Assembly: GCA_964445905.1 (NCBI GenBank)
Contig: CAYUNN010000007.1
Coordinates: 1 to 63,061, forward strand
Length of the DNA: 63,061 bases
From: an uncultured Candidatus Saccharibacteria bacterium
GTDB lineage: Bacteria; Patescibacteriota; Minisyncoccia; Minisyncoccales; JAGGXC01
Direction of reading: 5' to 3'
Shown: positions 14,190 to 49,919 of the stretch, one piece after another
Layout of the letters: every line of letters starts with the position of its first letter
Position numbering within the stretch: position 1 is the first letter of the stretch
Notes under the pieces: generated by a model
Databases searched by the model: none
What the model was told of the DNA's origin: nothing
Seen by the model: the letters and a program-made list of their open reading frames with translations, nothing else
Made by a program: the position numbers and the translations under genes

Positions 14190-14737
14190 CTAGGGTTGGA
14201 ATAAATATTCTGGCTCTATGGAAACTTCACCAACGGTCAAAAATTGCTTTGCTGTCTTTTCAATTTGAACCTTTAATAATCCTACTCTGCAAGAACCGCC
14301 ACTAGTAAATCCAGGAACTTCAGTAAATTCTAAAAATAAAACTCTATCTTTAAGAGCCGTGCTTAAAAGATTGAAGTCGGGATGAGGAAATTCAGTAGAA
14401 AATCCTTTTTCCTTTTCTTCGTCAGTAATCTCCCCCTGGATTAGCAGTCTAATTGTATCTCTTATCGGTCTTGGACTAGCAAGGATTCTTCTTTCGACTG
14501 GAATAACCGCTTCAGGACTGCAAGGATCACCGATTTCTTCTGCCTTGTTTTCATTATAATAATACATATATAATAATAATACATATATACTAACATTGAT
14601 TCTGGCTCAGGAGACTTTTGAGAACTTTCTTCAATCACCATCAAATACTGCCATCCCACTCCAATCCAACAAAAAATAGCAACAATTAAAATAATAAATA
14701 TAGCATATTTTGATTTTATTATTCGTGTAATACTCAT
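14190..14737 (-). pseudogene. Membrane-anchored GerMN-domain protein split into two ORFs by a 17-bp tandem duplication
   Basis: ORF 14462-14737 encodes an N-terminal TM anchor. ORF 14190-14567 encodes a GerMN-like domain (IPVERRI...LLIQGEITDEEKEKGFSTEFP...LEF). Removing one 17-bp copy fuses them in frame. Confidence 0.55.
14556..14589. repeat. Perfect 17-bp tandem duplication (ataataatacatatata x2)
   Basis: 14556-14572 is identical to 14573-14589, read directly from the sequence. Confidence 0.95.
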
Positions 14738-35353: not shown

Positions 35354-36394
35354 TTAAAATTGTTTTAAAAATCTTAAGTCGCCGGAATACAATAAGCGAA
35401 TATCATTAATTCTGTGTCTCATCATAACCAGTCTGTCAAAACCAAGACCAAAAGCAAATCCCTGCCAATTATTAGGATTTAATCCGCCTGCTTTTAAAAC
35501 ATTGGGATGGACCATTCCTCCGGGACACAGTTCTACCCAGCCAGTCTTTCCACAAGTAGAACAGCCCTTTCCTCCGCAGATAAGACATTTAATATCTATT
35601 TCAAAGCTTGGCTCAGTAAAAGGGAAAAATCCTGGCCTTAATCTTGTTTCTATTTTTTTCTTAAAAAATCTTTTTAAAAATTCTTGGATTACTCCCTTAA
35701 AGTCAGCAACAGAAATATCCTTGTTTATCATCAATCCCTCTACTTGATAAAATTGAACATCGTGCGAAGCATCAGAAGCTTCATGGCGGAATACTCTTCC
35801 CGGAGCAATAATCCTTATCGGAGGATTATACTTTTTCATGTAGCGAATTTGAACTGGTGAAGTATGAGTTCTTAGTAAAAGATTTTTAGATGATAGCTTT
35901 TTTTTAAGCCAAAAAGTGTCCCACAAGTCTCTAGAAGGATGGTTTTGAGGAATATTCAAAGCATCAAAATTATACCATTCCGTTTCAATGTGAGGCCCTT
36001 TAACAACAGAGAAACCTATGGAATTAAAAATACCTTCTACTTCTCTTCTTATTGAAGTAAGCGGATGTAAATGACCAGTTTCCATTTTTTTGCCTGGCAA
36101 AGTGACATCTAAACCTGATTTTTCTTTTTTACTATCAATTTTATCCTTAATCTCGCAAGCTTTCTTATTAATTTCTTCCCTTAAAAAAGACTTAATATCA
36201 TTTGCTTTTTTGCCAATGCCTGCTCTTTTTTCCTTAGAAATCTCTTTTAAAGAAGCTAAAATCTTGGTAATCTCTCCTTTTTTACCAAGATATTTTCTAA
36301 AAATCACATCCAATTCTTCTAGATCTTTTGCCTCTTTTATATCTCTTTTGCCCTTATTCTTAAGACTTTGAAAGTTTAATTTCTCCATAAACAA
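35354..36394 (-). CDS. pheS: Phenylalanyl-tRNA synthetase alpha subunit
   Basis: HPLT, LRTHTSPVQIR, FRHE..DA.H...FHQ-like, FPFTEPS, GFAFGLGFDR. Confidence 0.92.
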   Translation of the reverse strand: MFMEKLNFQSLKNKGKRDIKEAKDLEELDVIFRKYLGKKGEITKILASLKEISKEKRAGIGKKANDIKSFLREEINKKACEIKDKIDSKKEKSGLDVTLPGKKMETGHLHPLTSIRREVEGIFNSIGFSVVKGPHIETEWYNFDALNIPQNHPSRDLWDTFWLKKKLSSKNLLLRTHTSPVQIRYMKKYNPPIRIIAPGRVFRHEASDASHDVQFYQVEGLMINKDISVADFKGVIQEFLKRFFKKKIETRLRPGFFPFTEPSFEIDIKCLICGGKGCSTCGKTGWVELCPGGMVHPNVLKAGGLNPNNWQGFAFGLGFDRLVMMRHRINDIRLLYSGDLRFLKQF

Positions 36395-40566: not shown

Positions 40567-41547
40567 TCATTCGCATCTACAATAAGCCCAACGTTGATAA
40601 TAAGGTCCACATCTCCAACCAAAGTTCTGAGTTAAAGGAGTGTTGATATTGCCCGTACTCTCCAAGCAACCAGCCGCATTCCGATTCCAATAATGCCCAT
40701 CGTTACAAGTAGCATTTAATCCAATACTCTTAGCTTCAAGACCAAGTTCCGCACATCTTGCTGAACACGATAACCATTCTCTCCAGTTATCATCTTGACA
40801 TGTGCCACAACTTAAATAACAAGGTGCGCATCCCTCATTTTTAACTCCTTGTTCACTGGCAGAAAAAAAGCCCCCTCCTTCCAACTCAGCCCAAACACAA
40901 TATAAGCTTCGATCACTAGCATTGCTTGCAACGCAATAATTTACACCTGCAATATTATTGCATTCACTGTTTCCTCCCCCTGGATCTTTTGGCCAGAGAG
41001 CTAAATGATCAGGAGTTGGATTCTCTCCGAGTGCCATCCTGTCGCTGATTCCTGATTCAGAAATTAACTCAGGATACTCTTCGTTGATAACGTAATACAT
41101 TTCCATAGCCCACATGATATGCCTAATGTCAGATTTCCTTCTTGCGTCTCTTGTGCCTAAATACTCCAAGGAAGTAGAATATACTTTTATTCTTGTTTTG
41201 TTCTCGTTTTCATACCCAATCATATATCTTTCTCCCGGGCTTGGATCCTCGGGAAGCTGAGCGATAAAGATGGGGACCAGTTCGTCTTCGCATTCGGAAA
41301 CATCTACAACTTGATTATAACCAGGAACACAATCAGGATATCTCCCTTTATTTTCTATTTGATAGATATAAAATGCGTTTCCTATAGAATTAATATGTCC
41401 TTCCCTGGTAGTATTCCTTGCTTGCTCAAACTGACGAACAGGATTAATGGCTATTATTGCCACTGCAGTAATAATAGCAAGAATGCCAATAACAAGAACT
41501 ATTTCTATTAATGTAAAACCTTTACTTTTAGATAAAAATAATTTCAC
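40567..41547 (-). CDS. Composite type IV pilin-like protein (prepilin leader + two pilin-type head segments + Cys-rich tail)
   Basis: Class III signal KSKG/FTLIEIVLVIGILAI. The internal RDARRKSDIRHIMWAMEMYY and YCVWAELEGGGFFSASEQG duplicate the core of the 141-aa pilin at 43526-43951. The last ~80 aa are Cys-rich. Confidence 0.8.
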   Translation of the reverse strand: MKLFLSKSKGFTLIEIVLVIGILAIITAVAIIAINPVRQFEQARNTTREGHINSIGNAFYIYQIENKGRYPDCVPGYNQVVDVSECEDELVPIFIAQLPEDPSPGERYMIGYENENKTRIKVYSTSLEYLGTRDARRKSDIRHIMWAMEMYYVINEEYPELISESGISDRMALGENPTPDHLALWPKDPGGGNSECNNIAGVNYCVASNASDRSLYCVWAELEGGGFFSASEQGVKNEGCAPCYLSCGTCQDDNWREWLSCSARCAELGLEAKSIGLNATCNDGHYWNRNAAGCLESTGNINTPLTQNFGWRCGPYYQRWAYCRCE

Positions 41548-41610
41548 TTTAATATAGTAATTGTTAGTAAAATATTAATTACTTTACTCTACCAAAAAAT
41601 CACCCCTATT

Positions 41611-41670
41611 ACGAGGTGGATTTTCTTTGCAGGGATTACCGGACGATTTTCGAACTTTTGAGTGGGTGGA
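41611..41670. repeat. tRNA-Asp-3'-end-derived repeat, copy D
   Basis: gattttctttgcagggattaccggacgattttcgaacttttgagtgggtgga; 48/52 identical to copy C (42307-42358). Confidence 0.85.
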
Positions 41671-41692: not shown

Positions 41693-41948
41693 TTATTCAA
41701 TTTTATTTGATTTTTTAAGATCATGTTTACCGCAAAGAATTTGGATATTTTTAGAATCAGAGCTTGGTCCTTCTTTAGAAAAAAAGGGGGAAGACATGGT
41801 CAAAATGTAAATTTTCAGTTGTTCTAAATTTTACACATTTGCCACTATCTCTTTCCCAAACAATCTTTTTAGTTTCTGTACAGAACAATACTAGAACCTG
41901 GTCAGTAAAGATAAAATAATATTTATTTATTTTTATCTTCGTTTCCAC
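41693..41948 (-). pseudogene. HNH endonuclease-like remnant, frameshifted in an A7/T7 run
   Basis: One frame gives ...WERDSGKCVKFRTTENLHFDHVFP then a stop. The adjacent frame gives SKEGPSSDSKNIQILCGKHDLKKSNKIE*. Joined, they fit the HNH pattern C..(C)...H.DH..P....G....N...LC..(C/H)..K. The homopolymer is at 41779-41785. Confidence 0.55.
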
Positions 41949-42012
41949 TTTTTTTTAAAAAACCCCTTTCTTCTAATATTCTTCTATCTTCTTTTCCTCT
42001 TTCATCTTTTTC

Positions 42013-42267
42013 TTACAAATCGTATGATCTACTCACGCTTGAATTAAAAATATTAGGGCCAACTCCTATTCTTTTTCTTTCTAAATCAGACTGGCTTAGA
42101 TATGCAAAAATATATATTATCATCAATAATACAAATGCAATAATAAAAAAATAAATATTTTCATTAAGTACCGAAAAAATCAAAAAACGAAAACTAATTA
42201 TACCTATCCCTATTATGATAATAAAGAATTTCCAATCTCTTTTAAATCCGTATTTTAAACTTTTCAT
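42013..42267 (-). CDS. Hypothetical small membrane protein
   Basis: MKSLKYGFKRDWKFFIIIIG... with 2 TM helices. The ORF is open to GTG 42291. Confidence 0.4.
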   Translation of the reverse strand: MKSLKYGFKRDWKFFIIIIGIGIISFRFLIFSVLNENIYFFIIAFVLLMIIYIFAYLSQSDLERKRIGVGPNIFNSSVSRSYDL

Positions 42268-42298
42268 TATTTTATTCTGCCAAAAAACCACATCTAAT

Positions 42299-42358
42299 AC
42301 AAGGCAGATTTTCTTTGCGGGGACTAGCGGACGATTTTCGAACCTTTGAGTGGGTGGA
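42299..42358. repeat. tRNA-Asp-3'-end-derived repeat, copy C
   Basis: gattttctttgcggggactagcggacgattttcgaacctttgagtgggtgga, ending 1 nt before the receiver-protein stop codon. Confidence 0.85.
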
Positions 42359-42359
42359 A

Positions 42360-42725
42360 TTAAATTATTTCTTTTTTAATAGCTTTAACAAGATTATTAA
42401 AAGTTGTTTTTGACTTTGTTAAATAATTAGAAACTCCAAGTCCTAAAGCTTCCTGTATATCAGACTTCATTTCAAGCTGAGAAATGACTATTACTGGTAT
42501 GTCATTTATTTTTTTTGAATAATTAAGATTTTTTAAAATATCAAAACCATTAATACCAGGAAGAATTAAATCAAGCAAAATTAAATCAGGCTTTTCTTTA
42601 TTGATAATCTTTATTGCCTCTAAACCTTCTTCTAGCATGATAATTTTATAACCAATCTCTTCTAGCTTGTACTTTAAAAGCCTAACTAAAAATTTATCAT
42701 CTTCAATAAGTAATATTTTTTTCAT
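42360..42725 (-). CDS. Stand-alone response regulator receiver domain (CheY-like)
   Basis: KILLIEDD, PDLILLDLILPG (phospho-acceptor Asp), and VIVIS...K in the expected positions. 121 aa. Confidence 0.8.
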   Translation of the reverse strand: MKKILLIEDDKFLVRLLKYKLEEIGYKIIMLEEGLEAIKIINKEKPDLILLDLILPGINGFDILKNLNYSKKINDIPVIVISQLEMKSDIQEALGLGVSNYLTKSKTTFNNLVKAIKKEII

Positions 42726-42730
42726 AATTG

Positions 42731-43198
42731 CTAAAAATTAATTTCAGTAAAAGAAACTTTTCCATCTTTAATATTATCGTTTTTTAAGTCAAGAATTTTT
42801 AACTTTTTGCTTTTTACTTTAAAAATAGCATAGTCTTGATTCCAAAGATTTATCAGGGGAGGCCAAAAATCTTTCATTTCTCCTGCTACTTTTGCCAACC
42901 TTGTTAATGCTTTCTCTATCTCTTTTTCTGACTTAAGGAGTTTAGCTTCTCCAAATCCATGAACTAGAATTTTTTTGTATTCCCAAATAGAAAAATCAAT
43001 ACTTTTATTTTTCATTAACACTTTAACCTTGTTACTTTTAACTCCAGTAGCAAAATAAAAATTGAAATCTTTATCAACGGCAAAAATTAAGATAGATGAC
43101 CTGGGCACTCTTCCCGAGCTAATCGCAATAGACATAACTGGCTGATTTCTTAAAAAATTCAAAATTTCTTTTTTTGTATATTTTTTTCTCATAGACAT
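42731..43198 (-). CDS. Pyridoxamine 5'-phosphate oxidase-like (FMN-binding split-barrel) family protein
   Basis: Size and pattern fit the family (N-terminal KKEILNFLRNQPVMSIAISS...FYFAT...K...L). Assignment is tentative. Confidence 0.4.
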   Translation of the reverse strand: MSMRKKYTKKEILNFLRNQPVMSIAISSGRVPRSSILIFAVDKDFNFYFATGVKSNKVKVLMKNKSIDFSIWEYKKILVHGFGEAKLLKSEKEIEKALTRLAKVAGEMKDFWPPLINLWNQDYAIFKVKSKKLKILDLKNDNIKDGKVSFTEINF

Positions 43199-43328
43199 GG
43201 TTTCAATTTACTGCTTCTATTTTCTAAAACAATAGTTAATTTATTTTATAAAAAACTTGGTTATATTAAGAAAAATTGTACCATCCTAAAAAAAGAGTAA
43301 TTAATTTAAACCTTTACTTTATTATATC

Positions 43329-43405
43329 AAAATACCGCCTTCAAAATAAGGCGGTATTATCCACAAGTGATGCGGGGACTACCGGACGATTTTCGAACTT
43401 TTAAC
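43329..43405. repeat. tRNA-Asp-3'-end-derived repeat, copy B (terminator + tRNA 3' fragment)
   Basis: 43329-43387 is 57/59 identical to 49142-49200. 43371-43402 matches copies C and D. Confidence 0.92.
43332..43357 (-). terminator. Copy of the tRNA-Asp terminator hairpin
   Basis: ataccgcc-ttcaaaataa-ggcggtat, identical to 49145-49170. Confidence 0.6.
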
Positions 43406-43525
43406 TGGACAAATTCTAAAATGAGTCATGAAAAATTAATAAAATTAATTTTTTACATTAACTAGAATTATAAACTATTTTTTGCCAATTTTTTAGGTTA
43501 TATCCTGATTAAACCAGTTATTATA

Positions 43526-43951
43526 TTACCAGCAACAACCAGTTGTTGTTTCAATCTCACGTGTCCCTTTTTCACTGGCAGCATAAAAATCACCTTCTTC
43601 TAAATCAACGTAAATACAATACCATTGCCTACCTCCTTTTCCACCACATGAATTGCTATTGTTCAGCCAATTATAATTGCCGCCCTGCGGATCTTCGGGT
43701 ATAGGATTTAAATAACTACCAACAGCAGTGGGCGTAGCAAAACCAGCTTGAACATAGTACTGATTATCATCATAGAACATTTCCATGGCCAAATTAATTT
43801 GTCTAATATCTGATTTCCTTCTTGCATCTCTTGCTTTCGCTCTTGCTCCCCCCAAAGAGACTAAAACAATTGAAGCCAAAACGCCAATGATAGCAATGAC
43901 TACTAATAATTCAATCAATGTAAAACCTTTTTGTTTAGCTGTTTTAATCAT
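43526..43951 (-). CDS. Type IV pilin (prepilin with class III signal)
   Basis: MIKTAKQKG/FTLIELLVVIAIIGVLASI, a conserved Glu at position 5 of the mature protein, and C-terminal Cys residues. 141 aa. Confidence 0.88.
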   Translation of the reverse strand: MIKTAKQKGFTLIELLVVIAIIGVLASIVLVSLGGARAKARDARRKSDIRQINLAMEMFYDDNQYYVQAGFATPTAVGSYLNPIPEDPQGGNYNWLNNSNSCGGKGGRQWYCIYVDLEEGDFYAASEKGTREIETTTGCCW

Positions 43952-44068
43952 AATTTTTATTATCTATTACTTTTTTCATTTTACCTTAATTCAAAAAAGA
44001 AATAAATACTTTTAAGTTAAATTTTTTTATAAAATTATTCTTTATACTTTCTTTCTTGTTTCTTTTAT

Positions 44069-45106
44069 TTATTTTTTTATTTTTTTCAAAATATCTTCAT
44101 ATTTTTTAGCAACACTGTCCCAGTCAAATTCCTTACTCCTTTGATTGGCTTGTTCGCCCATTATTTTTCTTGAAAAAATATCTTCTTTTAATAATTTTGC
44201 TTTTTCTTTAAATTCATTAAAATTCTGGACAACAAATCCTGTTTTATTGTTTAAAACAATTTTTGGCATTTCTTCTATTTCATATAAAATACTTGGCTTG
44301 CCACAAGCACCTGCCTCTAAAAAAATTAATCCAAAACACTCCCATTCAGACGCAGAAACAAAAAAAGAACATTCTTGATAATTCTTAATTAATTCTTTTC
44401 TTTTCCTTGAAACCATTCCTAAAAAATTAACAGGCGCGTTTAATTTTTTAGCAATTTTTTTTAATTTCTTTTCCTCTGAACCATACCCGATAACATTCAA
44501 GGGGAAATCTATCTCTTTGCTTATTTTTATTAATTGTTCAACTCTTTTATGTTTTTCCAGCCTACCCACGTAAAGCATATAATTTTCATCTTTCCAATTT
44601 ACTTTGAACAACTTAGTATCTACCCCATTTGAAATTAAAACAGGAAGAGAATTAATCTTTTTTGCTTTTTCTTTTAAAAATTCAGAAATACAAATAATTT
44701 TTTTGTTTTTTAATTTTCTTTCAAAAAAAATCACAATAAATTTCCGGAAAATATTTTTTGTAGGAGGAGAACCATGCCATGTATATACAACTTCGAAGTT
44801 ATTTGTAGCAGGAGAAAGCCCTACATGATGAACGTTGATTATATCAAATCTTATCTTTTTATTTAATTCCTCTATTTCCCTTCTCAAATTTTTTATATTT
44901 TTAAAATAAAGAAAATCTTTTAATTTTCCACTAAATAATTTTGGAATTTTAATTTTTATAAACTTAAAATTATCTTCTTTAATATTTGTTTCTCCGGCAA
45001 GAACAAAAACTTGATGCTTTCTTCCAAGCCTTTTAGCTAGTTCATATATTACAGTATCTACCCCTCTTCCCTCAAAAAAAGTATCATTAATAAAAGCTAC
45101 CTTCAT
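44069..45106 (-). CDS. GT-B glycosyltransferase (GT4/group 1 family)
   Basis: E-x7-E motif (EWECFGLIFLEAGACGKP) and overall GT4 layout. Overlaps the upstream OST gene by 4 nt. Confidence 0.75.
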   Translation of the reverse strand: MKVAFINDTFFEGRGVDTVIYELAKRLGRKHQVFVLAGETNIKEDNFKFIKIKIPKLFSGKLKDFLYFKNIKNLRREIEELNKKIRFDIINVHHVGLSPATNNFEVVYTWHGSPPTKNIFRKFIVIFFERKLKNKKIICISEFLKEKAKKINSLPVLISNGVDTKLFKVNWKDENYMLYVGRLEKHKRVEQLIKISKEIDFPLNVIGYGSEEKKLKKIAKKLNAPVNFLGMVSRKRKELIKNYQECSFFVSASEWECFGLIFLEAGACGKPSILYEIEEMPKIVLNNKTGFVVQNFNEFKEKAKLLKEDIFSRKIMGEQANQRSKEFDWDSVAKKYEDILKKIKK

Positions 45107-47997
45107 TTTATAAATTCTAAATTATCTAATTCCGCATACTCTCCAAAACTCATTAAAAATTCTTGTCTTATAAGGATATTCTCAGGAATGGTTCTTGTGT
45201 CCCATATTTTAATTGGACCTTTTAATCCTTGATAATAAACAAATTCTCCAATTTCAATACCCCGAGACCTTAGATCGTTTATAATAAAATCTGATTCAAT
45301 GTGAGCAAGTTTAATTGTGGGGTATTTACCTAGAGGATCGTCCATTAAATAAAGATGAGCAAATAAACTATCTTTTACTTTTTCAGAAAGATAAACAACT
45401 GCCCCGGCTCTATCTATAGTAATTTCTCCACTAATATTTTGCTGAATAGAAGGCATTACTTGAATAAGAGAGTTTATTCCTATTTCGAAATCAAGTATTT
45501 CTCCATTTAAATAAAGATACCTTATAGGAATTCTGTATTGATTATTGTTTATAGAAAATACTCCTATTGGCCGGCTAAATGAATTTAATTCTTTCCTATT
45601 TGAAATTTCAAGTAATACTCCTTTAAGAATTGCTCTTTCTGAAGGCAATAAAAGAGAAACTCCATTTAAATCATAAATAATATCTTTATCAACGTAATTA
45701 CCTCCTATATAGGCTCTAATTTCTCCTGTATCAGTTTCTTGCGTCTGCCTTGCGTCTAAAGGTATCACAGAAATCATAGATAATCTGTCTTTTCTAGATT
45801 CGTCACTTCCGATGCCAGAAAAAGTAGGATACTTCTCAATATCGGTTGAATCAATTAACAAGTAAGAAATATTCATACTCTTTATTAAACTTAAAGCAGT
45901 TTCGGGAAAAGGAGTTGTCATCAAGTATCGCGCAGTTGTATGAACAAACCACTTATTTATATGCCTTCCATCGGTTACGGTTGGCCTTTCGCCAAGTGTT
46001 TGAATCCAATAACCATAATCCCACCAATGAACAAATATACTCCCCTGGGGAGTTTTTGTTCTTACAAAATTCATTGCTTTTTGCCACTGGTAATCGTAAT
46101 CAGATGGAACCATATTTTTTGCTCCATGAACCGTTGAATAAGAAAAGTAAATAAAAACATGTGCCGTAGCAAAAAGAATAACAGCAAAAATAAAAATAAT
46201 TAATGTTCTAATCATTTTTCCCTTTATATTCAAACATTCGCTAAATCTTAAAATTAAATAAGTAGAGACAATAATAAAAATTGGAGAAATTATAAAGAAT
46301 AATCTTACAGCGCCTCTCATTGAAACAGTTGCCCAAAAAGACAATGCAAGGAGAACCAAATAAGAAATATCTATTTTTTTAAAACACTCAATCGTTTTAA
46401 GATCTTTTTTAAAATGTGCTCTTGAGAAAAACCAAATCAAAATACCTAAGAATATAGCTAACCCTCCAAAATAAAGAATTCTTGAAAGAAAATTCTCTCC
46501 ATTTAAAGTGTGTTGTGGAGAAATTCTAGAAAAAATAAGACTTGATAGAAATAAGATAAATGAAAAATTTAAAATAATTTTTTTCTTTAAATTAAAATGC
46601 TTTATTGCGCTATAAAATAATGCAATTGCACCAAAATAAAACAACCAAAATAAATACCCAAAACTTCTAAAAACTTCTGTAAAATAAGGGGCTCTATTTT
46701 CAGTAATAGTTAGCGCTATCCTCTCTCTCCCAAAAGGATAAAGCAATCCTTCAATTATTTTAAGCAATGAATTAAACAACAAAGAAGGGTTTAGAATTAT
46801 AAGAGTTATAGTAATAATCAAGGTAGAAACAATTACTAAAATAATGTTTTTTGGAAAGTTTATTCTATTAATTTTTATTTTTTTATACAATCTAGTATTA
46901 AAGAGAAAATAACTAATAATCATAAAAAACAAGACGCCCACAGCAAAACCGCTATCGCTTAAACTTGTAATAACTGTTTCAATTTTTCCAGTTTTAAAAA
47001 TTTCAAAAATAATAGCAGGGATTAAAAAAGATAAATAAATAATTAAATTTTTATTTCTGTCTCTTTCAAAAATAAACACAATAAAGGCGACTAATGCAAC
47101 AGTCATAAATATATATTTATACCCACCCCACGTTAAACTCATGGCTCCTGTAAAAATTCCCGAAATCATTCCAAATAAAACCCATTTTCTTTTTTTAATT
47201 TCTTTCCATGCCAAAACAAAGAAAATGAGTGCTGGCCAAAAAAATACCATTCCTAAACTTTCTAATTCTGGAATTCCAGCAATTGTTCTGTAGAGCATAG
47301 AGGGTGCAAATGAGTAAAAAAATGAAGCAATGGTCGCACCAGTTAAAGATTTTTTTATTGAAAACTTAAATGAAAAAATAAAATATACAAAAAGAAAAAA
47401 TCCGATAATAGACATTAAAAAGAAAATAACTGGCGCAATAATTGCTGCATAGGTCACAGAAAACTCTCCAAACAAATTAATAATCTTATAAATGCCAAAA
47501 ATAGACCAGGGCATAAGATTTCTATATACGTATTGATTAAATGCACCAAGGGGAGCCTGTCTAAATAAATCAATTCTGTTAATGCTCCCCCTGCTTATCT
47601 CAATTGCATTTCTTAAAAATAAATAAGGATCTAAATCTGGCCCAAGTATCCAGTCATTTGTTGTAATATCTTTCAATCCACCCATGTTTGATATTCTTAC
47701 AATGACTGTTATGAATAACAACCAAACAATTAACGGAAGGAACATTAGTTTATATTTTTCAAAATAAGCCAAAATTCCAGACAATAAAAACATTAGCCCC
47801 AAGAAAAACCACCAAAAAAAAGAAAATATACCTAAAACATCTTCAAAAAAAACACTCCCAAAAAAGAAATTAATATATCTAAATAAGCTTATGACTAGAA
47901 CAAAAAAACCTAATAAACAAAATACAAAGACATAATTATTCTTTAAAATAATCTCTTTGAAGCAATCTTTTATTTTTTTCTCTTTTTTAACAACCAC
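45103..47997 (-). CDS. STT3/AglB/PglB-family oligosaccharyltransferase (964 aa)
   Basis: Multi-TM N-terminal domain with a first-loop DLDPYLFLR (cf. STT3 DPYFNYR) and AGIPELE. WWDYGYW is encoded at 46007-46027. YLLIDSTDIEKY lies ~60 aa later (DK motif; cf. YVLV..DDINKF). Confidence 0.85.
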   Translation of the reverse strand: MVVKKEKKIKDCFKEIILKNNYVFVFCLLGFFVLVISLFRYINFFFGSVFFEDVLGIFSFFWWFFLGLMFLLSGILAYFEKYKLMFLPLIVWLLFITVIVRISNMGGLKDITTNDWILGPDLDPYLFLRNAIEISRGSINRIDLFRQAPLGAFNQYVYRNLMPWSIFGIYKIINLFGEFSVTYAAIIAPVIFFLMSIIGFFLFVYFIFSFKFSIKKSLTGATIASFFYSFAPSMLYRTIAGIPELESLGMVFFWPALIFFVLAWKEIKKRKWVLFGMISGIFTGAMSLTWGGYKYIFMTVALVAFIVFIFERDRNKNLIIYLSFLIPAIIFEIFKTGKIETVITSLSDSGFAVGVLFFMIISYFLFNTRLYKKIKINRINFPKNIILVIVSTLIITITLIILNPSLLFNSLLKIIEGLLYPFGRERIALTITENRAPYFTEVFRSFGYLFWLFYFGAIALFYSAIKHFNLKKKIILNFSFILFLSSLIFSRISPQHTLNGENFLSRILYFGGLAIFLGILIWFFSRAHFKKDLKTIECFKKIDISYLVLLALSFWATVSMRGAVRLFFIISPIFIIVSTYLILRFSECLNIKGKMIRTLIIFIFAVILFATAHVFIYFSYSTVHGAKNMVPSDYDYQWQKAMNFVRTKTPQGSIFVHWWDYGYWIQTLGERPTVTDGRHINKWFVHTTARYLMTTPFPETALSLIKSMNISYLLIDSTDIEKYPTFSGIGSDESRKDRLSMISVIPLDARQTQETDTGEIRAYIGGNYVDKDIIYDLNGVSLLLPSERAILKGVLLEISNRKELNSFSRPIGVFSINNNQYRIPIRYLYLNGEILDFEIGINSLIQVMPSIQQNISGEITIDRAGAVVYLSEKVKDSLFAHLYLMDDPLGKYPTIKLAHIESDFIINDLRSRGIEIGEFVYYQGLKGPIKIWDTRTIPENILIRQEFLMSFGEYAELDNLEFIK

Positions 47998-48034
47998 AAT
48001 AAAATAAATTTATTTAAAAAGTTTTAATTTAATT

Positions 48035-49042
48035 TTAATCAATCATAAAAAACCCTATTAAAATAAATAAAATCTGAATTGTAAATATAAAATAAACAAC
48101 ATCTTTTTCGTAAACTTTTTTCTTGAATTTTTCTAAAAACCATATTGAAAAATGAGTTATTCCATAAATCTTTTTATATGGTTTTTTCAAACTTCCATCT
48201 TTTTGAGGAATTCCAAAAGATTGTTTTTTTAATCTTCCTCTTAATTTTAAAATCATTTCAAAAAAATAAGGAATAAAAATAACTAGTGCAATTTTTCCAA
48301 AATCTCCTAAAATAGCCATCCCAGCTATTAGAGCTCCAATTGAGTAAGTTAAAATATCTCCCGGAAAAACCTTTGCGGGAAATTTATTATAAAAATAAAA
48401 TACAATTAATGAAGAAACCATGATCAATCCAATTAAGGCTAGCCACGTACTTCCAGTCACATAAGAAACATAACTTAAAAAAACCAAAATCAAGATTCCT
48501 TGTCCAGATTCCAATCCATTAAATCCAGCTAAAAAATTATAAGTTATGGCTACACCCGCAACGCCTAAAGGGATTAAAACTAACGGGAAAAACAATCCAA
48601 GATCAACTAATCCTAAAAAAGGCACGTCTACAAAATTATTTCCTAAATTTATTATAATTAATGGAATAGAAGCAATTAAACTTAAAAAAATCCTTGTTTT
48701 TTTCGAAAGATTTTTATTTTTCCATTCCAATAAATCATCTAACAAGCCAATAATTGACAAGTTGAAAATTACAAATAATAATGCAAGCGATTGAATGATA
48801 ACTAACCAGTTATTTTCAAAAAAAAGTATTTGAATTGTAATATAAGACAAAACACCCAAAATAAAACCAGCCATAACAACCACTCCACCTGAAGGTGCAA
48901 TATTCTTATGTTTCCCAATGGGATATTTATTCATATCGCTCCAGACCAATCCAATACTTCTGCACTTTTTAATCCACCAGGGCAATGCAATTAGACAAAA
49001 AAGAAAACTCACTATCACAATTAAGAATAATAACGGATTCAT
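48035..49042 (-). CDS. Polyprenyl-phosphate GlcNAc-1-phosphate transferase, Alg7/AglH-like (glycosyltransferase family 4)
   Basis: ~10 TM helices. GLLDDL Asp-Asp motif. NFLAGFNGLESGQG matches the eukaryotic/archaeal GPT form (N.LAG.NGLE.GQ) rather than the bacterial MraY/WecA form. Confidence 0.78.
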   Translation of the reverse strand: MNPLLFLIVIVSFLFCLIALPWWIKKCRSIGLVWSDMNKYPIGKHKNIAPSGGVVVMAGFILGVLSYITIQILFFENNWLVIIQSLALLFVIFNLSIIGLLDDLLEWKNKNLSKKTRIFLSLIASIPLIIINLGNNFVDVPFLGLVDLGLFFPLVLIPLGVAGVAITYNFLAGFNGLESGQGILILVFLSYVSYVTGSTWLALIGLIMVSSLIVFYFYNKFPAKVFPGDILTYSIGALIAGMAILGDFGKIALVIFIPYFFEMILKLRGRLKKQSFGIPQKDGSLKKPYKKIYGITHFSIWFLEKFKKKVYEKDVVYFIFTIQILFILIGFFMID

Positions 49043-49144
49043 ATTATTTTAACATTAAAATTTTTAAATCTTTTAGCTGTCTTTTTATATATCCTCCAAC
49101 ATTAATTTTGTCTTAATCAGTTAATGTTTCCTTATTCTACTAAA

Positions 49145-49170
49145 ATACCGCCTTCAAAATAAGGCGGTAT
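49145..49170 (-). terminator. Intrinsic terminator downstream of tRNA-Asp
   Basis: 8-bp stem ataccgcc/ggcggtat with a 10-nt loop, followed by a U-run on the minus strand. Confidence 0.65.
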
Positions 49171-49185
49171 TATCCACAACTGATG

Positions 49186-49259
49186 CGGGGACGACCGGAC
49201 TCGAACCGGCGATCTCCTCTGTGACAGAGAGGTGTGTTATCCAGCTACACCACGCCCCC
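49186..49259 (-). tRNA. tRNA-Asp (GUC)
   Basis: 74-nt cloverleaf: acceptor GGGGGCG/CGTCCCC, D stem GTGT/ACAC, anticodon stem CCTCT/AGAGG with loop CTGTCAC, T arm GCCGG-TTCGAGT-CCGGT. Confidence 0.88.
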
Positions 49260-49919
49260 ATGAATTTTAATAAAATCATCAAAAACCTTTTTCTTTCTTT
49301 TCATGTATAAATAATTAGAAAGATTATCATATAAAAAATGATAAATTTTAAGAGCACTAAACGTACTATAGTGCAATCTATAGGCTCTGTCAAGATATTT
49401 TATGGAAGCACTAACTTCTAAAATATCTTGGAGTTTATCTCTTAACTCCTTTAATAAGTTTTTACTCCCTGAAGTAAATCCTAAGATAAGGACGGGGTAA
49501 GGAGAAGGACGATCATTTTTATGAGAATAACCTTTCCAAATATTTCCATCTCCATCAAAATATCCTCTAGTAAAATCAGAAAGATATTCTAAAGGAATAC
49601 GGGGCAACGTTACTTCTTTACTTTTGTTGGGAATCATTCCTAGATTTAAAAGATCTCTAAACATTTCCTTGCTACCAATTTGAAATCTATAGATTGTACT
49701 CCAATTATCCTTTCTCTTTCTTACTGTTATTTTGTGATTTGAATTCATTACATTCCTTATATTTTTTAAAAGTTCGTAATCGGTATTATGAAAATCAATA
49801 TATTTCGAAGATCTTGGATTTTCAAATATGCATCCGTCTGCCAGAAAAAAACCTAAGACATAAGCCATTTCTCTAGACCAACTCTTAAAAAAATCTTCGT
49901 TTTTATTCCTAACTATCAT
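49245..49919 (-). CDS. LAGLIDADG homing endonuclease (double-motif, free-standing)
   Basis: Two LAGLIDADG motifs, LGFFLADGC and RGYFDGDGN, about 100 aa apart. 224 aa. The last 15 nt, including the stop codon, lie inside tRNA-Asp. Confidence 0.85.
   Translation of the reverse strand: MIVRNKNEDFFKSWSREMAYVLGFFLADGCIFENPRSSKYIDFHNTDYELLKNIRNVMNSNHKITVRKRKDNWSTIYRFQIGSKEMFRDLLNLGMIPNKSKEVTLPRIPLEYLSDFTRGYFDGDGNIWKGYSHKNDRPSPYPVLILGFTSGSKNLLKELRDKLQDILEVSASIKYLDRAYRLHYSTFSALKIYHFLYDNLSNYLYMKRKKKVFDDFIKIHGGVV

Follow-up and report, generated by a model that had tools for sequence, protein, structure and literature searches.

The 63,061-nt stretch of DNA analysed here (hereafter the window; contig CAYUNN010000007.1 of assembly GCA_964445905.1, from an uncultured Candidatus Saccharibacteria bacterium of the candidate phyla radiation (CPR), or Patescibacteria) carries, next to an intact tRNA-Asp gene, a 5.8-kb cassette bounded by two direct repeats that contain the 3′ end of that tRNA. 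As stated in an initial annotation made from the sequence alone, exactly four open reading frames (ORFs) lie between the repeats, and none of them encodes a recombinase; all four are on the minus strand. They specify a UDP-GlcNAc-1-phosphate transferase-type protein (GPT), an oligosaccharyltransferase (OST), a glycosyltransferase of family GT4 and a bacterial type IV pilin. Far from being an isolated island, the cassette is the most recent addition to a variable region of 12.8 kb between tRNA-Asp and pheS, in which at least three such units are found (Table 1).

The OST has the multi-span N-terminal domain and the WWDYG motif of its class. Its Pfam scores fall slightly under the gathering thresholds (STT3 19.7 versus 24.5, core domain 22.1 versus 23), and it aligns over its full length with proteins annotated as Stt3 at 50–54% identity. 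The pilin has homologues in CPR relatives at 39–52% identity, with a short leader-region match of 78% in one of them (L033). It contains a single N-x-S sequon, at N97, and may be the acceptor for the archaeal N-glycosylation core. A second pilin gene, of 326 aa (40567–41547), shares a DARRKSDIR…AMEM segment with the cassette pilin, and both pilin genes directly adjoin a unit that contains the tRNA tail.

Table 1. Features of the tRNA-Asp/pheS region, in window coordinates; copies are lettered from the tRNA outwards as C, B, A and Z
Feature	Coordinates	Strand	Basis and remarks
pheS, ancestral downstream neighbour of tRNA-Asp	35354..36394	minus	12.8 kb from tRNA-Asp in the window
Oldest copy Z	41574..41670	minus	core GTCCGGTAATCCCTGCA, 14/17; terminator hairpin 41601–41618; TGGTAGAGT box
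Interval Z–A	41693..42291	minus	92-aa ORF, no family (42013–42291); frameshifted HNH endonuclease remnant (41693–41954)
Older copy A	42262..42358	minus	arm TCCACCCACTCAAAGGTTCGAAAATC; core GTCCGCTAGTCCCCGCA, 15/17 to tRNA; TGGCAGAAT box
Interval A–B	42360..43198	minus	PNPOx-like protein (42731–43198); single-domain response regulator (42360–42725)
Repeat copy B (attR-like)	43314..43387	minus	core GTCCGGTAGTCCCCGCA (43371–43387), 16/17; hairpin; extended -10
Element-type inner arm beside copy B (TTTGTCCAGTTAAAAGTTCGAAAATC)	43388..43413	minus	19–20/26 to the A and Z arms
Bacterial type IV pilin, 141 aa	43526..43951	minus	KGFTLIELLVV leader; N_methyl PF07963
GT4-family glycosyltransferase, 345 aa	44069..45106	minus	Pfam scan; archaeal neighbour comparison
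OST, STT3/AglB-type oligosaccharyltransferase, 964 aa	45103..47997	minus	WWDYG at residue 658; homologue search; tree
GPT, UDP-GlcNAc-1-P transferase-type (AglH/Alg7-like), 335 aa	48035..49042	minus	Pfam PF00953, 1.3e-28; BLASTP; tblastn
Repeat copy C (attL-like)	49127..49200	minus	core, spacer, hairpin, U-run, -10-like box; fold
tRNA-Asp(GTC), intact	49185..49259	minus	ARAGORN; Rfam RF00005 at 49186–49259, 62.4 bits
Free-standing double-motif LAGLIDADG homing endonuclease gene	49245..49919	minus	tRNA-Met/tRNA-Asp spacer; ends inside tRNA-Asp

The 59-bp direct repeat on which the initial annotation was built (43329–43387 and 49142–49200) does agree at 57 of 59 positions; the two copies differ at 43367 and 43380, and their longest unbroken identity is 38 nt. 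A repeat finder lengthens this match to 74 nt (43314–43387 versus 49127–49200; 67/74, 91%). By the boundaries of ARAGORN and Rfam, the repeat includes the last 15–16 nt of the tRNA, as had been claimed. Weaker similarity had also been proposed further out; it exists on the low-coordinate side, where 10 of 15 positions agree at 43314–43328 and the likeness fades over ~15 nt, and not on the side of the tRNA body, where it breaks off sharply beyond 43387 (0/6, 2/12). Copy C, whose start lies 16 nt inside the 3′ end of the intact tRNA, consists of a 17-nt core GTCCGGTCGTCCCCGCA (49184–49200), a 12-nt spacer, an 11-bp hairpin (49144–49171; fold -24.4 kcal/mol, z -3.3), a U-run and a -10-like AGTAGAAT box. 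The distal direct repeat of the tRNA 3′ end, copy B, has an identical hairpin (43331–43358; z -3.4), followed by a perfect TGATATAAT extended -10 upstream of the next gene pair. The 28-nt hairpin occurs at these two sites of the window only, as compared with none expected from shuffles.

Two further, degenerate copies of the tRNA-Asp tail escaped the initial annotation (42316–42358 in copy A and 41628–41670 in copy Z), so that the tail is found four times in the window, always on the same strand: at the gene itself (C) and at 43371, 42316 and 41628. All four copies share the core at 14–16 of 17 positions, and core mismatches rise with distance from the tRNA, from one in B to two in A and three in Z. 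Aligned in the orientation of the tRNA, the copies follow a common plan, in which the core is succeeded by a hairpin, a U-run and a TGnTAnAAT-like box. In A the hairpin is decayed (z -0.27); that of Z still folds (z -2.6) and stands, with its box, upstream of the 326-aa pilin gene. Beside its core each of B, A and Z has, in addition, an arm of ~26 nt upstream (TCCACCCACTCAAAAGTTCGAAAATC in Z). The arms of A and Z agree at 25 of 26 positions and that of B agrees with either at 19–20, whereas any arm matches the tRNA body at only 6–7. The interval between Z and A contains an HNH remnant (…HFDHVFP… / …ILCGKH…K), which is a second trace of a selfish endonuclease at the tRNA-Asp locus, beside the LAGLIDADG gene.

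These fragments sit regularly where gene sets end or start, and invariably on the coding strand, which might suggest that they are functional RNA modules, for example processing or stability signals at operon ends, and not scars of recombination. We regard this as very improbable: no Rfam family is found on the tRNA-tail fragments, none of them folds like a tRNA, the structure of copy A is decayed, and such fragments are absent from relatives.

What sets copy B apart is its composite structure. Downstream of the core, B matches C at 51 of 57 positions and A and Z at only 15 of 57, while A and Z match one another at 44 of 57 and are homologous across ~100 nt including the arm. Copy B thus combines an arm of the A/Z type with a flank of the C type and is a hybrid. 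At core position 8, B, A and Z have A and the tRNA has C; since B keeps the A/Z variant there, the switch must have occurred in the final 9 nt of the core, GTCCCCGCA, a stretch that forms the 3′ strand of the tRNA-Asp acceptor stem.

These features lead us to favour, with some reserve, the view that the 5.8-kb interval is a horizontally acquired, integrase-less islet that originated by serial insertion at the tRNA-Asp 3′ end of a CPR/Patescibacteria genome. The sharp boundary on the tRNA side, the hybrid nature of B, the arm found at three boundaries and the decay with distance all argue for it. A circular element carrying a three-part site, composed of the ~26-nt arm, the 3′ strand of the acceptor stem and a terminator, would have recombined with the tRNA-Asp 3′ end. 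The outcome would be an intact tRNA with unit C (attL) on one side and the hybrid unit B (attR) on the other, with the exchange point inside GTCCCCGCA. A switch zone of at most 9 nt points to site-specific rather than RecA-mediated recombination. Like events would have taken place at least twice before, leaving A and Z, progressively decayed and each upstream of a small gene set, and the array would have grown by accretion, the newest unit lying closest to the tRNA and the older scars being pushed outward. As each unit would bring in a terminator and a -10 box, an insert may be transcriptionally insulated on arrival while the next gene set keeps a promoter. The recombinase would have been lost or would act in trans.

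Alternatively, circular or linear DNA carrying the tRNA tail and its terminator (~60–100 nt) may have been taken up and integrated by a RecA-dependent, Campbell-type single crossover, in which case the repeats would be substrates for homologous deletion rather than att sites. This would account for an identity that is long for an att core (38 nt unbroken, 57/59 overall, reaching well past the tRNA) and for the ~100-nt homology of A and Z, arm included, and it is consistent with a region that has no recombinase. Moreover, no unitig combines the mismatch states of B and C, as a crossover beyond the mismatches would; accordingly, any cassette-free genome must have crossed over inside the 38-nt stretch, where RecA acts. 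However, the switch in copy B, at 9 nt or less, is too short for homologous recombination, and the presence of a 26-nt arm at three boundaries implies a shared, vector-like partner site. We therefore consider a Campbell-type origin rather unlikely.

It is also conceivable that the interval has never been a mobile unit, and that the terminator–promoter unit behind tRNA-Asp was duplicated locally several times as a regulatory module. Illegitimate recombination and rearrangement would then have brought foreign as well as native genes in between the copies, and B and C would be kept alike by selection or gene conversion. The hairpin and TGnTAnAAT-like box upstream of a gene set in every unit would offer a functional reason for conservation. 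The fixation of the cassette in all samples, the age of the archaeal transfer as judged from a long branch, and the rearranged native DNA that makes up part of the 12.8 kb (these three points are described below) would be in keeping with such a history. It leaves unexplained why a non-functional tRNA fragment should be kept at 16/17 in B, with a sharp boundary on the T-loop side, and serial insertion fits better with B being a hybrid and with a decay that increases away from the tRNA. On this evidence, purely local duplication appears unlikely.

The tRNA-Asp/pheS junction of relatives was examined by a scan based on GatA, which returned 39 loci, those from CPR/Patescibacteria having 45–69% GatA identity. 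Many of these relatives keep the order proS-mreB-gatC-gatA-p178-tRNA-Met-tRNA-Met-tRNA-Asp. The search for an empty site proposed in the initial annotation was successful: in two loci (L004 and L011) tRNA-Asp is followed by pheS after gaps of ~97 and 150 nt, and then by pheT and gyrB. The comparison covers distant relatives only, as GatA identity to these two is 57–61%. Their adjacency, as compared with the 12.8-kb gap found here, indicates that the tRNA-Asp/pheS junction is an ancestral empty site which was filled in the lineage of the window. The spacer of L004 contains a hairpin and a promoter-like box, and L023 has one additional gene, on the opposite strand, between tRNA-Asp and pheS. Part of the filling is native, since a homologue of its DUF4015 gene sits elsewhere in L001.

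On the other side of tRNA-Asp, the spacer to tRNA-Met measures 3–12 nt (4–13 end-to-start) in L004, L006, L011 and L023 and contains no LAGLIDADG gene, so the homing endonuclease gene of the window is a lineage-specific insertion. Unrelated inserts of 0.7–2.4 kb are found within the same tRNA cluster in L005, L014, L018 and L033.

The origin of the glycosylation genes is documented by homology, gene order and phylogeny. A comparison with 5.8 billion proteins brought up no close relative of the OST; its best match reaches 54% identity, and all but one of the named matches are labelled Nanoarchaeota or Pacearchaeota. The exception (P0024, at locus L041) bears the NCBI label 'Patescibacteria group bacterium'; its contig encodes archaeal ribosomal proteins, SecY, prefoldin and eIF-2B, and the bin is probably mislabelled. 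In three loci (L040, L041 and L084) the order is L19e, L18, S5, L30, L15, SecY, EMC3-like, prefoldin, eIF-2B, SpoIIM, GPT, OST, and OST is followed by a gene for a GT4 protein in L041, whereas L040 and L084 have an epimerase gene there. The window GPT is 60% identical to the archaeal GPT encoded upstream of OST (202 of 335 positions to that of L040, by BLASTP), and the window GT4 is 48% identical to the product of the gene after OST in L041; for the OST itself, identity to the archaeal proteins is ~52%. In a tree of 118 OST sequences the window protein, on a branch of 0.73, is sister to a clade of 31 leaves with a support of 0.999; this clade includes sequences with verified archaeal context, and the whole group is nested among further archaeal sequences. 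Synteny, identities and nesting together indicate that GPT, OST and GT4 were transferred as a block from a DPANN archaeon, and not recently. The block resembles the aglH–aglB locus of Pacearchaeota and Nanoarchaeota (SpoIIM-GPT-OST-GT beside the ribosomal cluster with SecY); family, order and orientation agree for all three genes, at 48–60% identity. It differs from that locus in lying on a bacterial chromosome, in being reduced to three genes and in having a bacterial type IV pilin gene next to it. The pilin being bacterial, the cargo must have been assembled in a bacterial background. In the literature we found nothing relevant on AglB or STT3 in CPR bacteria.

Composition had been invoked in the initial annotation as a further sign of foreign origin. 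The cassette is indeed poorer in G+C than the window as a whole (28.1% versus 32.4%), but its synonymous sites are host-like, which makes the argument weak. The G+C content at third codon positions (GC3) of the four genes is 0.19–0.26, inside the spread of the other 43 window ORFs (mean 0.255, standard deviation 0.035), and that at fourfold sites (0.18–0.28) is likewise inside the range of the window. Most of the gap lies at codon positions 1 and 2 and reflects the amino-acid make-up of membrane proteins. Moreover, archaeal loci of the donor type are equally AT-rich (30–37% G+C), so that composition decides the origin neither way, and the foreign nature of the cargo is established by synteny and nesting.

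The organism is present in four sequencing runs, X1–X4. In X1 and X2, whose matching Logan contigs are attributed to SRR2989655, the Logan unitigs (k = 31) break at the 38-nt identical stretch, and an empty-site joint would make no new 31-mers. Unitig depth in these two runs is 32.1 on the left flank, 31.8 on the tRNA side and 30.5 and 32.4 elsewhere on the chromosome, as compared with 24.2 and 19.8 for the cassette and 49.6 for the shared 38-nt node. Such depths could be explained if a quarter to a third of the genomes lacked the cassette, and are suggestive only, the ratio of 0.62–0.87 being confounded by low G+C. Depth falls monotonically with unitig G+C (19.8 at 0.273, 24.2 at 0.298, 30–32 at 0.32 and above), and we rejected it as a decisive sign of heterogeneity. 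In X3 and X4 the cassette-to-flank ratio is ~0.85–0.9, and the cassette-to-flank share of words is ~0.9 in every run. An indel was noted elsewhere: at window position 14556, an X1 unitig with a depth of 30.5 does not have 17 nt that are present in the window's assembly.

The ambiguity of the k = 31 graph at the 38-nt node and the lower cassette depth might hint that the assembly is at fault, a separate circle or the DNA of another organism having been threaded in through the shared repeat. This explanation, however, is largely refuted and scarcely credible. Look-ups of exact proteins (p178, LAGLIDADG, GPT, pilin and PNPOx) recovered long contigs, at least five of them independent and originating in four or more other metagenome assemblies of the Joint Genome Institute (JGI), which contain the integrated form at 99.9–100% identity to the window. 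Their order is gatA-p178-LAGLIDADG-(tRNA-Asp)-GPT-OST-GT4-pilin-PNPOx-response regulator-…-pheS, and no other context was met for any of the five proteins. As these integrated contigs are independent, an assembly chimera is excluded; in addition, one unitig joins the bacterial pilin to GT4 and OST, and the share of words given above also argues against an artefact. Present-day mobility of the cassette would be hypothetical; in its current state it acts like a remnant similar to a cis-mobilizable element (CIME), fixed or nearly so.

The sole recombinase of the window is a large serine recombinase (226–1725; Resolvase, Recombinase and Zn_ribbon_recom domains), which the initial annotation had put forward as a candidate for recognition of the 59-mer. 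This link did not hold: local alignments of its 61-nt arm and of the adjacent tRNA-Gln with the four units scored no higher than shuffles, and likeness between the two sets of sites is limited to generic tRNA features. The recombinase gene is enclosed by 61-nt inverted repeats (95–155 and 1656–1716, 97% identical), the right arm of which ends 4 nt inside the 3′ end of an opposite-strand tRNA-Gln. In X1 the unitig of this gene has a depth of 13.6 and an alternative branch one of 17.5, which add up to 31.1; the depth of the chromosome is 30.5. The depth of the gene indicates that the module is carried by less than half of the X1 population, and it was not found in the contigs of X3.

It is tempting to speculate that the tRNA-Asp tail is the landing pad of an integron-like gene-capture system in CPR bacteria. 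Recombinase-less cassettes of 0.7–5.8 kb, each with its ~26-nt arm, would be inserted and removed in trans by one of the large serine recombinases associated with tRNA ends in this genome, would acquire a terminator–promoter unit on arrival, and would in this way have coupled an archaeal N-glycosylation module to a pilin gene. We judge this scenario distinctly improbable. A true integron cassette array was considered and rejected, as no IntI or other tyrosine recombinase occurs in the region or among the 41 scanned ORFs and the repeats are tRNA-derived rather than attC-like.

A fifth fragment of the B type was encountered in run X1. It matches 43372–43408 at 33 of 37 positions, opens a unitig of 5,967 nt and is followed by GTTGAGATTATAGACGATTTGGGATTAAAT. 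The depth of this unitig, 16.4, is about half that of the chromosome, and it could belong to a related organism or else represent a further cassette or a partner element. The flank of the fragment is absent from viral contigs.

Several observations weigh against insertion of a mobile element at the tRNA-Asp 3′ end. No integrase or remnant of one was found in the cassette, its intergenic DNA included, or in the whole 12.8-kb region, and the Pfam scan detected no tyrosine recombinase among the 41 window ORFs. No run or assembly yielded an empty site, a circle junction or a hybrid unitig. Nothing resembling the repeat unit turned up in viral or metagenome collections: the hairpin had no match in either, and neither the arm-plus-core motif nor the tRNA-Asp tail had one in viral contigs. 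The relatives have no fragments of their own tRNA-Asp downstream of the gene, except for an inverted copy in L033. Identity between B and C extends ~58 nt past the tRNA end, further than typical att cores, and so long an identity would also be expected from Campbell-type insertion or local duplication. The host-like composition of synonymous sites in the cassette must be counted here as well. Finally, the long branch of the OST (0.73) speaks of an old transfer, while the two repeats still agree at 97%, which implies either a recent move of the islet, long after it left the archaea, or preservation of the likeness by selection or gene conversion.

The inverted copy in L033 (15133–15149) matches the 3′ end of that genome's own tRNA-Asp at 16 of 17 positions and lies ~170 nt downstream of the gene. 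A search with the 3′ 24-mer of the tRNA also produced 39 metagenome loci, which were set aside as uninformative, all of them belonging to unrelated organisms whose D-arms differ.

By analogy, the closest documented parallel is the array of islands at ssrA in Dehalococcoides. There, tandem islands are bounded by direct repeats of the 3′ end of the gene, with a conserved motif beside each repeat and a fixed position at which gene and repeat disagree; some of the islands lack the integration module and have been proposed to be cis-mobilizable (PMC3146451). The tRNA-Asp locus would share with this array the tandem inserts downstream of a single small-RNA gene and bounded by repeats of its 3′ end, the short motif next to every repeat that does not align with the gene itself, the one consistently differing position, and a putative insertion site near the T-loop or acceptor region. 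The differences are substantial, however. Most ssrA islands have a six-gene integration module with a CcrB-like serine recombinase overlapping attL, and the tRNA-Asp units have none; the ssrA repeat is 20 bp long, as compared with 59–74 nt including a terminator and promoter at tRNA-Asp; and the target here is a tRNA gene rather than transfer-messenger RNA, with much smaller inserts (0.7, 1.05 and 5.8 kb).

CIMEs are integrase-less units that keep both att sites and take part in site-specific accretion, as known for ICESt1-type elements of Streptococcus (reviewed in PMC5704250). The cassette likewise keeps an attL and an attR without genes for integration or transfer. In contrast to the ICESt1 case, the array contains no intact integrative and conjugative or integrative and mobilizable partner element, and kinship to a conjugative element, or mobilization, would be only putative here. 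To our knowledge, no conjugation apparatus is known in CPR bacteria. With classical tRNA islands, of the P4-like or pathogenicity-island type, the cassette shares insertion at a tRNA 3′ end that leaves the tRNA whole, a distal repeat of the tail, foreign cargo and absence from relatives. Unlike those that depend on tyrosine integrases, it has no integrase, is very small, has a host-like synonymous composition and shows ~58 nt of identity beyond the tRNA. The layout resembling attL and attR that the initial annotation had recognized is thus borne out by the direct repeats, the empty site in relatives, the foreign cargo and the hybrid distal repeat. As a tRNA-associated islet without an integrase, or CIME-like unit, the cassette belongs to a known kind, and its cargo is the unusual part.

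The locus provides a well-bounded case of gene flow between domains, from DPANN archaea to CPR bacteria, both of them ultrasmall episymbionts, in which the insertion scar is still legible. The graded series of tRNA tails suggests that tRNA-Asp has been a recurrent entry point for surface-related genes into very small genomes, and if a recombinase acting in trans were found, the array would represent a simple natural cassette-capture system. The position of an archaeal AglB-type N-glycosylation core beside a bacterial type IV pilin makes N-glycosylation of pilins in CPR bacteria a testable hypothesis.

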